46,957 bases of DNA from Chloroflexota bacterium (lineage in GTDB: Bacteria; Chloroflexota; Anaerolineae; UBA4142), in contig JBBIJS010000001.1 in assembly GCA_037445855.1 (NCBI GenBank), positions 1 to 46,957 on the forward strand. The letters run 5' to 3'. The notes under the pieces were generated by a model. The model searched no databases. It was given only the letters and a program-made list of their open reading frames with translations, and was not told where the DNA came from. Shown here in pieces: positions 21,935-43,750 of this stretch. The stretch's first letter is position 1; every line of letters begins with the position of its first letter. The position numbers and the translations under genes were made by a program.

Positions 21935-21963
21935 TTGCCAATCCTCGCACTTGATGATAGAAT
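21935..21963 (+). promoter_or_regulatory. Putative promoter of the glycan-assembly operon (TTGCCA-17 nt-TAGAAT, with TGA upstream of the -10)
   Basis: TTGCCA at 21935-21940 and TAGAAT at 21958-21963. Confidence 0.5.
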
Positions 21964-21996
21964 ACGCGGCAGCAAGTTTAGTTTGTCAAGGAAGCA

Positions 21997-23013
21997 ATGC
22001 TTAAATCCGTTCGCTTTTGGATCGGGATGGCGATCAGTGTCATCTGTCTTTATTTGGCGTTCCAGGGAATCCAGTTCGATAAACTGCTCGAGGCGTTGAG
22101 AACGCTGGACTATGCATGGTTGCTGTTGGCGTTCCTGATTTGGTGCGTCAGTTACAGTGGCCGCGTTTTCCGATGGCAGTTGTTGTTCGCTCCGCTGACG
22201 CTGCGGCGGGGCAAGGTTTTCAACGCGCTCAACATCGGCTATTTTCTCAGCAACATCCTGCCGGCGCGCTTAGGCGATTTCGTCCGCGCGTATTTGATCG
22301 GCGATTGGGAAGGCGTCAGCAAGGCGCGCGCGCTCTCCACTGTCGTCGTCGAACGAATGACGGACGGGCTGACGGTGGTGCTGCTGCTCGCGGTGACCGC
22401 GCTGTACGTGCCGACGATTCCGCTGGAAGCGCGGCAAGCCGCGGTCGGCGTCGCCATCACTGGGATCGGCGGCATTTTGTTCTTGATGCTCCTCTCGTTC
22501 CAAAAAGAGCGCGGCACGGTTCTGCTCCGCCGCCTCGCGTCGCCGTTTTCATTCTTGCAGCGTCCCGGCTTGTGGCGCGCGCTCGATTCGCTGATCGATG
22601 GCTTTGCGGTCTTGCGCTCGCCGCGCCCGATCATCGGCGTTGCGCTGTGGGCGCTCTACGCGTGGATCACCGGCGGTGTGATGTTCTGGGTCGTCATGCG
22701 CGCGTTCGATTTGCGCGATGGCGCGGGCGCGGCGCTGCCGCTCGCCGCGGCGTTCCTCGTCATGACCGTGACCTCGCTCGTCGTCGTCATTCCGTCCTCG
22801 CCGGGCTACCTCGGCATCTTTCACTACGTCGCCGTGTTGACGCTGACGACGATGTACCATGTCGATAAATCTAGCGCGCTCAGTTACGCGGTAGTGATGC
22901 ACGCGGTCAGTTATCTGATGCTGACCCTGCTCGGAATTTTTTCGATTTGGAAGGAAGGGTTATCGTACAAAAGTTTGCAGGCGATCGAAGCGCAGGCGGC
23001 GCAAGACAAGTAG
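21997..23013 (+). CDS. Flippase-like membrane protein (LPG_synthase_TM / UPF0104 family)
   Basis: 338 aa with about 8 TM segments. 'NILPARLGDFVRAYLI' and 'PSSPGYLGIFH' are typical of the MprF-N-terminal-like family. Confidence 0.75.
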   Translation: MLKSVRFWIGMAISVICLYLAFQGIQFDKLLEALRTLDYAWLLLAFLIWCVSYSGRVFRWQLLFAPLTLRRGKVFNALNIGYFLSNILPARLGDFVRAYLIGDWEGVSKARALSTVVVERMTDGLTVVLLLAVTALYVPTIPLEARQAAVGVAITGIGGILFLMLLSFQKERGTVLLRRLASPFSFLQRPGLWRALDSLIDGFAVLRSPRPIIGVALWALYAWITGGVMFWVVMRAFDLRDGAGAALPLAAAFLVMTVTSLVVVIPSSPGYLGIFHYVAVLTLTTMYHVDKSSALSYAVVMHAVSYLMLTLLGIFSIWKEGLSYKSLQAIEAQAAQDK

Positions 23014-23030
23014 CGAGCCACGGATTCTCA

Positions 23031-43300: not shown

Positions 43301-43688
43301 CAACGGGCAGTTCTCCGAGCCGGTTGGGCTGGCGGTGGACAAGCAGGGCAATTTCTTTGTTGCCGATACGTGGAACCAGCGCATCCAAAAATTCGACGCG
43401 AATTTCAATTTCGTCGCGCAGTGGCCCGTGCAGGCGTGGGACAGCCAAACGGTGGCGAACAAGCCCTACCTCGCGGTCGACGCGGACGGAAACGTTTTCG
43501 CGACCGATCCGGAAGGCGCGCGCATTATGGAATTCACGAACGACGGCGCGCTGATCAAGGTGTTTGGCGTGCGCGGCGCCGACCTCTCGTCGTTCAACCT
43601 GCCGACCGGTCTCGCGTTCGACGCGCAGGGGAATCTGTACGTCGCCGATTCGGGGAATCACCGGATTCTGGTGTTCGCCAAGCCATAA
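40308..43688 (+). CDS. TIGR03663-type GT-C-like membrane protein fused to a C-terminal six-bladed NHL-repeat beta-propeller
   Basis: 'YNHDESIH' (DE at 40458-40463) and 'IYHGPLLYH' (HGP at 40530-40538), as described for TIGR03663. 'QPSYYYLLVTMP'. Six NHL repeats of type 'P.GLA.D..GN.YVAD..N.RI.KFD..G' between about 42830 and 43685. Confidence 0.82.
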   Translation: MEAMSERKNFLDAPVSALFKLDWERVLLIVLLVVGIVTRLWDLSYRAYNHDESIHTDWSWNLYTGRGYQHNPIYHGPLLYHATALAFFLFGDNNVTGRLPNALFGIVLIALPFFFRKWLGRRGALATMAMLIISPVVMYYSRFNRHDIYVEVFVVLLALCIWKYFDDRKQMWLYAAAAFLALAFTAMETTFIFTAIFAVFLCSHFTFEYLRPRVQWGDLALGLFASILGIPFFGLFVAYQALRSLRRAPAQLDWRAIPSFDLGMVFATFSLPLITPFLFVILNPIWQAISHTDFLSITAFTDVSTLTQIAQSQPDVLFRVLALTGAMILFAALLGWWWNGRVWVVCALLFWPIFTVFFTTFFTNGGGFFTGLLGSLGYWLSQQGVARGGQPSYYYLLVTMPMYEFLPYVVGIAAIFWYWWRYRVVHLLAVLIWMLWIILYYVAIRPFLAGVMPNAAEQLVVVFIAVLLPLTFFATYDPKNPASVFPAFIFTWTAGVLIIFSWAGEKMPWLTMHLVIPLTFVAGWALDQLLDADWRGWLARGAQWIALLVPLALVLLASLLVARPFQGVGLDQLSATNAFIVSLVLLLGLVAPALYFVGRRFARGELVRIVAVVFVLVLTALTVRFAWMAVFINPDVASETIIYAQGTHDVPIAMQEIEALSRRLCAQNTATKPLAGECDNGTIKVAYDDDSSWPFVWYLRNYRNAQYYGAAPSAAFDAPVVIVGPKNEDAIKGFLGTKYTKRVYKLIWWPLEGYKDLTLDRVLNYFRDPQQRADLFTAWFYHQYKESYSAWPYVHNFSFYVRKDVAALLWNYAGDLAPQPAPDDEYTKKFVQLPAARALGTEGKGNGQFEFPRNLAFDAQGNMYVADSDNARVEKFDSTGKFLLAWGSKSPDNAIGPAGTFSQIWGLAVDPAGNVYVADTWNHRIQKFDANGKFLTMWGTNGDTRGIAKTDPLLFYGPRAIVIDAQGNLLVTDTGNKRVLKFSPTGEPLAQYGGFGADNGQFSEPVGLAVDKQGNFFVADTWNQRIQKFDANFNFVAQWPVQAWDSQTVANKPYLAVDADGNVFATDPEGARIMEFTNDGALIKVFGVRGADLSSFNLPTGLAFDAQGNLYVADSGNHRILVFAKP

Positions 43689-43711
43689 GGATTGGAGCGA
43701 CAAAGTACGGG

Positions 43712-43750
43712 AGGCGAGTGACGAGAAACGTGACTCGCCTTGTTTTTTTT
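43712..43750 (+). terminator. Rho-independent terminator ending the operon
   Basis: aggcgagt (43712-43719) pairs with actcgcct (43733-43740) and is followed by TGTTTTTTTT. Confidence 0.8.

Follow-up and report, generated by a model that had tools for sequence, protein, structure and literature searches.

A 46,957-nucleotide stretch of DNA from a Chloroflexota bacterium (assembly GCA_037445855.1, contig JBBIJS010000001.1), which we call the window, contains a ~22-kb cluster of 12 consecutive open reading frames (ORFs), all on the + strand, flanked upstream by recN (20018–21847, with SMC_N and AAA matches) and downstream by sucC (43859–44995, with ATP-grasp_2 and Ligase_CoA matches). We number the genes and their products g1 to g12 and give all positions in window coordinates. 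The first genes encode cytoplasmic-type functions and the later ones mainly large polytopic membrane proteins, in which we recognize six modules related by family or by predicted fold to glycosyltransferases of the GT-C class; one protein, g7, holds two of them, denoted g7N and g7C. A previous reading of the letters without database searches (the sequence-only reading) had counted 13 ORFs in the cluster, and the ORF list and a check of each junction give 12. That reading had the layout right in other respects: the ORF list, a terminator scan, and RNA folding agree that all cluster genes share the + strand and are bounded on one side by the recN terminator and on the other by a strong closing terminator, and every junction it listed was correct when coordinates were compared. 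Neighboring genes overlap by 4 nt (ATGA or GTGA) at 25298, 25951, 26748, and 34337, by 29 nt at 33414, and by 35 nt at 38448; 5-nt and 6-nt gaps precede 28790 and 36017, respectively, and the other intergenic gaps measure 17, 60, and 78 nt, the last, at the g2–g3 junction, being the largest, as had been claimed.

The transcription signals fit this layout. A promoter-like site 5′ of g1 (21935–21963, + strand; TTGCCA-17-TAGAAT with an extended TG), also noted in the sequence-only reading, is a consensus match at 10 of 12 positions and the best sigma-70-like match of the region; the remaining sigma-70-like sites match at 9 of 12 positions and occur at chance level (7 found, 4.0 ± 2.5 expected from shuffled sequences). 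The terminator scan placed the recN terminator at 21877–21902, and terminator-like matches within the cluster were no more frequent than in shuffled sequences (28 found, 27.7 expected). At the 3′ end, an intrinsic terminator-like element (43711–43750, + strand) consists of a hairpin at 43711–43741, with a minimum free energy of −21 kcal/mol (z = −2.7), and a U8 run; a simple terminator scan overlooked the hairpin because of an internal mismatch, and folding recovered it. The layout thus suggests co-transcription, and the cluster is probably a single transcription unit.

Two of the six modules are members of the DUF2298/TIGR03662 (Chlor_Arch_YYY) family. The first, g7C, is the C-terminal half of g7 (residues 724–1550; 30959–33442) and is fused to a PMT_2-type module; the second, g10 (821 aa; 36017–38482), stands alone and has a C-terminal globular domain. 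They score 397 and 389 bits against PF10060, and 577.4 and 574.8 bits against TIGR03662, for which the cut-off is 300.25 bits, bearing out the earlier assignment of TIGR03662 to two modules. An AlphaFold2 (AF2) model of g10, built on 47 homologs, was confident, with a predicted local distance difference test score (pLDDT) of 87.1 and a predicted TM-score (pTM) of 0.92. Foldseek searches with this model, a structural comparison that the sequence-only reading had proposed, gave seven matches with E < 1e-3, all of them to GT-C enzymes and none to transporters: the archaeal oligosaccharyltransferase (OST) AglB (7E9S/5GMY), which was the top match, the C-mannosyltransferase DPY19 (7ZLI/7ZLH/7ZLG), and the arabinosyltransferase AftA (8IF8). 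These matches had E values of 1e-5 to 2e-4 and a probability of 1.00, with transporters next at a probability below 0.2, and the C-terminal domain of g10 resembles the C-terminal globular domain of AglB-S2 (3VU0; target-normalized TM-score, TMt, ~0.5). GT-C enzymes being its only significant neighbors, the model says that DUF2298 is of GT-C type by fold. Neither g10 nor g7 matches the STT3 Pfam family or contains WWDYG in its translation, so we do not regard g10 and g7C as members of GT66; in place of WWDYG they carry the mid-protein loop motifs WWWWRASR (g10) and WWYWNASR (g7C).

The 47 DUF2298 homologs share a dense set of invariant polar motifs, comprising E138/E142, D159, SYYYFGY, WWWWRxSR, DEFP...GDxHPH, N380/W382/D383, and E593...R604-M-N-T; the SYYYFGY motif, beginning at S168, is invariant or nearly so. 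In g10 numbering the invariant residues include W285–R292, D307–E308, D318/H320/H322, and E593–T607. Candidates for a first-loop acidic residue are D31 or E138/E142/D159. The g7 fusion suggests that the DUF2298 N-terminus is extracytoplasmic, assuming that the C-terminal domain of g7N lies outside the membrane. When 1.84 billion representative proteins were searched with a DUF2298 profile, 9,250 matched at E ≤ 1e-3, of which 7,236 reached E ≤ 1e-10; clustered at 50% identity, the family has 7,000 or more clusters. Some of its members are giants of 2,400–2,750 aa. One of these, P0276 (2,434 aa), carries PMT_2/PMT followed by two DUF2298 copies, equivalent to g7 and g10 in a single chain, and we therefore argue that g7 and g10 work together. 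Two others, P0337 and P0372, have two DUF2298 copies and C-terminal TPR repeats, with no PMT_2 match reported, an arrangement that fits the second class of architectures described for TIGR03662.

DUF2298 proteins might instead share the multi-helix architecture of GT-C enzymes while serving as transporters, scaffolds, or membrane anchors. The lack of sequence-level similarity to any GT-C enzyme or PDB chain would fit such a role, as would the low TM-scores of the g10 model, and a literature search for functional studies of DUF2298 or TIGR03662 found passing mentions only and no report of an activity. We consider a non-enzymatic role quite unlikely, because all seven significant structural matches are to GT-C enzymes at a probability of 1.00 and transporters fall below 0.2, because the homologs share invariant polar motifs typical of active sites, and because DUF2298 is fused to, and syntenic with, PMT_2-type GT-C modules.

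The other four modules are of the PMT_2 type, each exceeding the PF13231 threshold of 26.1 bits. They are g6 (678 aa, polytopic, with a C-terminal soluble part; 26748–28784; 37.9 bits), g7N (residues 1–723 of 1550; 28790–30958; 45.2 bits), g11 (599 aa; 38448–40247; 34.6 bits), and g12N, the N-terminal part of g12, which includes an alpha/beta domain (approximately residues 1–836 of 1126; 40308–42815; 47.3 bits). Only g12 passes the TIGR03663 cut-off of 126.25 bits, with 239.3 bits, and its homologs are named "flippase activity-associated protein Agl23" by NCBI, some of them also matching PF02366; g11 scores 111.9 bits and is a divergent TIGR03663-like paralog of g12N. Pairwise profile comparisons with hhalign gave probabilities of 100% for g11–g12N, 98.9% for g7N–g6, 98.1% for g6–g11, 96.2% for g7N–g11, 95.8% for g6–g12N, and 53% for g7N–g12N, and at this profile level the four modules are homologous to one another. 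The sequence-only reading had proposed six GT-C-like modules, of DUF2298/TIGR03662 and TIGR03663 types. Four of the six stand by family model and the two DUF2298 modules by fold, without profile-level homology; likewise, PMT_2 membership extends to all four modules named here and TIGR03663 membership to g12, whereas g11 remains below the TIGR03663 cut-off.

Conserved residues set these modules apart from one another. The HPDER motif of g7N, which follows its first transmembrane (TM) helix (H54-P55-D56-E57-R58), is at least 90% conserved among 40 orthologs. In g12N, the residues R39, R46, H50-D51-E52-S53, and H75-G76-P77 are conserved in at least 90% of orthologs and are mostly invariant. D188 of g6 is at least 90% conserved, a partial match to the first-loop acidic feature. 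Among g11 orthologs only E55-A56 of the DE region and P77 of HGP are kept. The acidic first-loop motif that the sequence-only reading had ascribed to these enzymes is thus present in g7N (HPDER) and g12N (HDES), and the motif Asp and HGP are not conserved in g11 orthologs. The TIGRFAMs description of TIGR03663 specifies an N-terminal invariant DE dipeptide, an HGP tripeptide, and two Arg residues; these hallmarks are found in g12 and not in g11, which looks, by sequence, like a degenerate paralog of g12N. A hydropathy scan and the secondary structure of the g10 and g12 models indicate polytopic proteins that have numerous TM helices and, on the extracytoplasmic side, a large loop or domain, and in the g12 model (pLDDT 85) two loop helices follow TM1, with D51/E52 opening the first. 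The best 50 Foldseek matches of the full g12 model were all NHL propellers, so that search speaks for the propeller only.

Two apparent resemblances among the modules did not hold up. A C-terminal soluble domain common to all six was rejected, as only those of g11 and g12 are homologous (97.7%), and an 18-residue similarity between g10 and g7N, W-x-x-x-N-x-P-x-G, was dropped at a probability of 6%. Separately, residues 389–395 of g12 (GQPSYYY; 41473–41493) place Tyr-Tyr-Tyr at the start of a helix, with Q390, P391, Y394, and Y395 invariant, and residues 168–174 of g10 (SYYYFGY; 36518–36538) place a conserved Tyr-Tyr-Tyr at a helix start in the same way. As the two families have no detectable homology, this motif may reflect convergence or a shared ligand-binding feature.

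The sequence-only reading had described TIGR03663 as a family of unassigned function, which no longer applies: NCBIfam now names it Agl23, flippase-associated, and an activity has been reported for Agl23 of Haloarcula hispanica (HhAgl23), which in purified form flipped M5GN2-PP-Dol in liposomes and rescued a yeast rft1-delta strain (PMC11182771). This raises the possibility that the TIGR03663-type g12, and perhaps g11, translocate lipid-linked sugars, with transfer left to the DUF2298 modules and perhaps to g6 and g7N. The score of g12 on TIGR03663, the naming of its homologs, and the reconstituted activity of HhAgl23 in proteoliposomes (PMC11182771) speak for such a division of labor, and the loss of the DE Asp and HGP from g11 is what would be expected of a non-catalytic paralog. 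Yet g12N passes PMT_2 and retains the invariant DE, HGP, and Arg residues where PMT- and ArnT-type GT-C enzymes place the catalytic acid, its fused extracytoplasmic NHL propeller suits acceptor binding more than flipping, the cluster already has a flippase-like protein in g1, and flippase activity is known for one distant archaeal member only. We regard this division of labor as doubtful. It would be compatible with the overall model developed below, changing who does what within it, and by its loss of motifs g11 would be a better candidate than g12 for a non-catalytic role.

The five genes at the 5′ end of the cluster differ in kind from those that follow. The first, g1 (338 aa; 21997–23013), encodes a polytopic MprF-type flippase-like protein of the LPG_synthase_TM/TIGR00374 type (PF03706, 177.5 bits; TIGR00374, 81 bits, with the cut-off at 43). 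The product of g2 (345 aa; 23031–24068) is a sugar-nucleotide epimerase of the SDR (short-chain dehydrogenase/reductase) superfamily and of the CDP-tyvelose 2-epimerase type, with Epimerase and GDP_Man_Dehyd domains. Its best matches in the PDB, over the full length, are TaTyvE (9RL0; E 7e-97, 327.8 bits) and Salmonella TyvE (1ORR; E 8e-88, 298 bits), well separated from the next-best family, GalE (E 3e-40, 141.6 bits), and TaTyvE converts CDP-glucose to CDP-mannose (PMC13098431, PMC7851689). By this similarity, g2 is probably an NDP-hexose C2 epimerase that interconverts glucose and mannose. The g3 gene (384 aa; 24147–25301) encodes a family 4 glycosyltransferase (GT4; GT-B fold, retaining) with Glycos_transf_1 and Glyco_transf_4 domains and the E-x7-E motif ETFGLVQVE; its closest relative of solved structure is PimA (4N9W/2GEJ; E 4e-20 over residues 6–380), a phosphatidylinositol mannosyltransferase of the phosphatidylinositol mannoside, lipomannan, and lipoarabinomannan (PIM/LM/LAM) pathway (PMC3485146, PMC12041525, PMC13223929). 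The g5 gene (266 aa; 25951–26751) encodes a class I S-adenosylmethionine (SAM)-dependent methyltransferase with Methyltransf_23/11/31/25 matches. Pfam and NCBIfam searches thus agree with the earlier naming of an LPG_synthase_TM protein, an SDR enzyme, a GT4 with E-x7-E, and a SAM methyltransferase.

That naming had left out g4 (218 aa; 25298–25954), which encodes a Uma2-family putative endonuclease (PF05685, E 1e-36) and is an unrelated insertion. It overlaps both of its neighbors, g3 and g5, by 4 nt, with ATGA upstream and GTGA downstream. The Uma2 gene is missing from all of 80 related loci, at this position and otherwise, and L011, the nearest relative, has its GT4 gene directly beside its methyltransferase gene. 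From this distribution we take g4 to be a lineage-specific inserted selfish or passenger gene that has taken on operon-style translational coupling.

Toward the 3′ end, the C-terminal part of g12 (42816–43688) forms a six-bladed NHL beta-propeller fused to the membrane module. Pfam (NHL, E 5e-45), NHL domains in the PDB (E 1e-42), and Foldseek (TMt 0.88–0.90) all support this propeller, which had been recognized from the translation alone. Between g7 and g10 lie two further genes, an insert confined to this subclade. One, g8 (308 aa; 33414–34340), encodes a lineage-specific, signal-anchored protein whose sole hydrophobic segment is N-terminal (residues 15–41); it has no match in Pfam, NCBIfam, or the PDB and is absent from the clusters of related loci. 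The other, g9 (557 aa; 34337–36010), encodes a secreted protein rich in Cys (14 residues) that probably folds as a right-handed parallel beta-helix; it starts with a cleavable-type signal peptide (...PVAAFA|DAP) and ends in a Pro/Thr/Ser-rich C-terminal tail. Although g9 itself has no significant Pfam match, full-length homologs at 44–50% identity carry PF13229 (Beta_helix), in line with the earlier description of one secreted protein as a right-handed beta-helix, and some of these homologs bear the NCBI name "right-handed parallel beta-helix repeat-containing protein." The family has ~123 homologs (P0389–P0507 among them) in 5.8 billion proteins, and all source names given are Chloroflexota. 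The g9 gene is present in L011, and in the wider subclade a g9-like gene (HY782_28650) adjoins a g10-like gene (HY782_28655).

We then compared the cluster with 80 species-level loci around DUF2298 homologs, counting for each gene only loci with enough flanking sequence; flanks were limited to 10 kb, so counts for distal genes are lower bounds. The loci are labeled nearly throughout as Chloroflexota (Anaerolineales, Caldilineales/Caldilineae, Ardenticatenaceae, Thermoflexales, and a few Dehalococcoidia), the exceptions being one locus labeled Nitrosomonadaceae (L070) and one protein homolog labeled Acidobacteriota (P0085). Directly upstream of g10, g7C is found in 42 of 47 loci and g7N in 40 of 47, so the PMT_2–DUF2298 fusion is kept at this position in 40–42 of the 47. 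A g11-type gene lies downstream in 39 of 66 loci, and an additional g11-like paralog family is represented by unassigned ORFs in 38 loci. Sequences matching g12N occur in 20 of 46 loci and the NHL domain in 21 of 46, with the fusion of the propeller to the membrane module kept in ~20. Upstream, the GT4 gene g3 is found in 15 of 37 loci, g6 in 14 of 37, and the methyltransferase gene g5, syntenic after the GT4 gene, in 11 of 37; a g1 homolog lies in or beside the cluster in five related loci, upstream in L048, L054, and L074 and downstream in L023 and L068. The core order g7–g10–g11(–g12) recurs in most of the 80 loci, and a collinear series of (SDR), GT4, methyltransferase, g6, g7, g10, and g11 genes at 25–50% identity is present in L034, L038, L057, L063, L065, L070, and L081. 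The arrangement is not due to chance: many Chloroflexota species keep this gene order even though their proteins are only 25–45% identical. The survey of neighborhoods suggested by the sequence-only reading therefore shows conserved synteny, in Chloroflexota-type loci.

Apart from further g11-like paralogs, the only additional genes that recur within 10 kb in these relatives (L002–L081) are those for cytidylate kinase (cmk) in 21 loci, a plsC-like acyltransferase in 16, an ECF (extracytoplasmic function) sigma factor in 14, and a putative anti-sigma protein in 6; these four were identified by reading the sequences and not through a search of families. Where it occurs, the sigma/anti-sigma pair could control expression of the cluster. 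As in the window, sucC comes after the cluster in six related loci.

Conserved neighborhood need not mean a shared pathway, and g1–g5 might serve a separate glycolipid or sugar pathway beside independently acting membrane proteins. That g1, g2, g3, g5, and g6 occur in 3–15 of the 37 loci with adequate flank would fit mere co-location, as would the recurrence of sucC, cmk, and plsC-like genes as neighbors and the fact that the unrelated Uma2 gene shares the array's translational coupling. Against this, stop/start overlaps run through the array and internal terminators are not above chance, the GT4–methyltransferase–g6–g7–g10–g11 series is collinear in many loci despite identities of 25–50%, the locus counts are lower bounds with distal genes cut off by the 10-kb flanks, and proteins fusing g7 and g10 bind the core together. 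We find co-location without a common pathway unlikely, and strongly so.

Taken together, these observations lead us to propose that the cluster is a conserved system with which Anaerolineae-type Chloroflexota build a glycoconjugate at the outer surface of the cytoplasmic membrane, a reading to which we assign a probability of roughly 65%. On the cytoplasmic side, g2 would supply an NDP-hexose by C2 epimerization, most likely through glucose/mannose interconversion, and the PimA-like g3 would add the first sugar or sugars to a membrane lipid acceptor; the product may be methylated by g5. Either g1 or Agl23-type proteins, or both, may then carry the glycolipid, or a lipid-linked donor, across the membrane. 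Outside the membrane, GT-C enzymes draw on donors linked to a lipid phosphate (PMC11127046, PMC3485146), and we envisage that g6, g7N, g11, and g12N, together with g7C and g10, extend, branch, or transfer the glycan there from polyprenyl-phosphate-linked sugars. The g7 fusion and g10 would form a physical unit, and the g12 propeller and the secreted g9 would bind or process the glycan or its acceptor. Gene layout, family memberships, the GT-C-like fold of DUF2298, synteny, and the gene fusions are established by the analysis; co-transcription, the membrane side of each step, the lipid acceptor, the polyprenyl-phosphate-sugar donors, and the nature of the product are what we infer, and among possible products we favor one that is lipoglycan-like.

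By analogy, the logic of the proposed system is closest to that of the mycobacterial and corynebacterial PIM/LM/LAM pathway, in which the GT4 enzyme PimA acts first, the product is flipped, and the GT-C enzymes PimE, MptA/B/C, EmbC, and Aft extend it with polyprenyl-phosphate-mannose fed by Ppm1 (PMC3485146, PMC12041525, PMC13223929). The two share a PimA-like GT4 for the cytoplasmic face, several paralogous GT-C enzymes with extracytoplasmic domains, and a mannose-related sugar-nucleotide enzyme (g2), and DUF2298 counts AftA among its closest structural matches. They differ in that the GT-C families of the cluster are PMT_2/TIGR03663 and DUF2298 rather than GT87, GT53, GT85, and GT89, that no Ppm1-like synthase is found in or near the cluster (10 kb, 80 loci), and that the cluster has an MprF-type flippase-like gene, forms one compact array, and belongs to another phylum. 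The Emb/Aft analogy of the sequence-only reading had pointed the same way, and the interpretation given there is supported in part. We know of no lipoglycan from these Chloroflexota.

Other known systems resemble parts of the cluster. Three-component systems (GtrA/GtrB/Gtr*, and the Citrobacter youngae pentofuranose system with GT136) likewise encode sugar activation, a flippase, and a GT-C enzyme together (PMC11127046). The cluster lacks their GT2 or phosphoribosyl pyrophosphate (PRPP)-type polyprenyl-phosphate-sugar synthase, its flippase-like protein is of the LPG_synthase_TM type (Pfam and NCBIfam searches found no GtrA-, SMR-, or MATE-type flippase gene in the cluster), and it has six GT-C-like modules, not one. 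With ArnT and PMT (GT83/GT39), the modules g6, g7N, g11, and g12N share PF13231 membership and, in g7N and g12N, an acidic DE-type motif after TM1, but their scores are low (35–47 bits) and they carry extra C-terminal domains. H. hispanica Agl23, which acts in extracellular glycosylation with dolichyl phosphate-linked hexose (Dol-P-hexose) (PMC11182771), is matched by g12 in TIGR03663 membership and in the DE, HGP, and Arg residues conserved in at least 90% of g12 orthologs; g12, however, is bacterial and about twice as long, has the additional alpha/beta domain and NHL propeller, adjoins DUF2298 genes and the degenerate paralog g11, and has a predicted activity only.

The AglB/PglB/STT3 family (GT66) provides the best structural neighbors of the g10 model, including the globular domain after the last TM helix, and it invites the reading that the cluster glycosylates proteins, with DUF2298 acting like an OST, the PMT_2 modules acting as protein O-glycosyl (mannosyl) transferases, and secreted proteins like g9 as substrates. 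PMT_2 and PMT are, after all, protein O-mannosyltransferase families, the Pro/Thr/Ser-rich tail of g9 is typical of O-glycosylated linkers, AglB is the top Foldseek match of g10 and has a similar C-terminal domain, and Agl23 acts in archaeal N- and O-glycosylation (PMC11182771). However, g10 shows no sequence similarity to this family, neither the STT3 match nor WWDYG is present in g10 (nor WWDYG in g7C), and DPY19 and AftA fit g10 about as well as AglB does. The PimA-like GT4 and the MprF-type flippase-like protein point instead to a lipid acceptor, and beta-helix proteins more typically accompany the processing of polysaccharides. A protein glycosylation system is, in our view, improbable.

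Several results weigh against the glycoconjugate-assembly model that we prefer. No link between DUF2298 and GT-C enzymes was found at the level of sequence: phmmer with a single sequence and a search with the 47-sequence profile gave no match among PDB sequences, and hhalign comparisons with the four PMT_2 module profiles gave probabilities of 1–2%, leaving the fold alone to connect them. Even there, the global TM-scores of g10 to GT-C enzymes are low, at 0.30–0.37 when normalized to the query and 0.46–0.48 when normalized to AftA. When model helices were combined with positive-inside counts, both parities of DUF2298 topology fit equally, so that its motifs could face either side. For the one TIGR03663 member that has been characterized, the reported function is that of a flippase and not of a transferase (PMC11182771). 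At 75 bits, g3 resembles PimA only modestly, and it falls short of every NCBIfam equivalog cut-off. Only a minority of related loci have g1, g2, g5, or g6. Finally, the cluster encodes neither a polyprenyl-phosphate-sugar synthase (a GT2 like Ppm1, GtrB, or DPM1) nor a phosphoglycosyltransferase, and neither kind of gene is a recurrent neighbor, within 10 kb, in the 80 loci; a Ppm1-like GT2 is absent from the 47-kb window, and the rest of the genome, which was not searched, could encode one.

Going further, DUF2298 might be a GT-C family in its own right that, with PMT_2 and Agl23-type proteins, builds the main extracytoplasmic lipoglycan or wall or sheath polysaccharide of Anaerolineae-type Chloroflexota. 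We advance this tentatively, judging the odds to be against it, and would be equally guarded about the accompanying idea that the system is the bacterial counterpart of machinery that accompanies these families in Archaea, with new donor or acceptor chemistry.

Chloroflexota are abundant in soils, sediments, and wastewater; to our knowledge their cell-envelope chemistry is poorly defined, and we know of almost no glycobiology in the phylum. A literature search linking Chloroflexi with GT-C enzymes found nothing. The cluster is conserved in loci labeled Anaerolineales, Caldilineales/Caldilineae, Ardenticatenaceae, and Thermoflexales and holds two copies of a very large family, DUF2298. If it makes a major envelope glycoconjugate, proteins called "hypothetical" would gain a function by the thousands, the question of whether Agl23-type proteins act as flippases or as transferases would have a test bed, and there would be a genetic handle on the biogenesis of the Chloroflexota envelope or sheath. 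Family-level annotations of the genes and the principle of assembly by multiple GT-C paralogs were already known, and the co-occurrence of TIGR03662 and TIGR03663 is already stated in the TIGRFAMs family descriptions; what is novel is the families and the product rather than the concept. New here are the fold assignment of DUF2298, the evidence from g7/g10 fusions, the quantified synteny, the assignments of g2 as TyvE-like and g3 as PimA-like, and the correction concerning Agl23.

Elsewhere in the window, the genes at 4.7–17.4 kb were considered as part of the system and rejected, as they encode unrelated amino-acid transport and metabolism. Among them, a branched-chain amino-acid ATP-binding cassette (ABC) permease (8838–10646, + strand) has BPD_transp_2 at residues 280–566, preceded by an N-terminal extension of ~280 residues without a Pfam match. 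A 534-aa protein (11541–13145, + strand), also unrelated to the cluster, carries Peptidase_S74, the intramolecular chaperone of endosialidase and tail-spike proteins, a domain unusual outside phage tail fibers; a 251-aa ORF without a family assignment (13145–13900, + strand) follows directly. Over the membrane-protein genes of the cluster (26000–42000), AT skew is strongly negative (−0.2 to −0.3), and long antisense ORFs occur, for example one of 704 aa on the − strand (41589–43703). We take both features to be compositional by-products of GC-rich genes for hydrophobic proteins and not additional genes.

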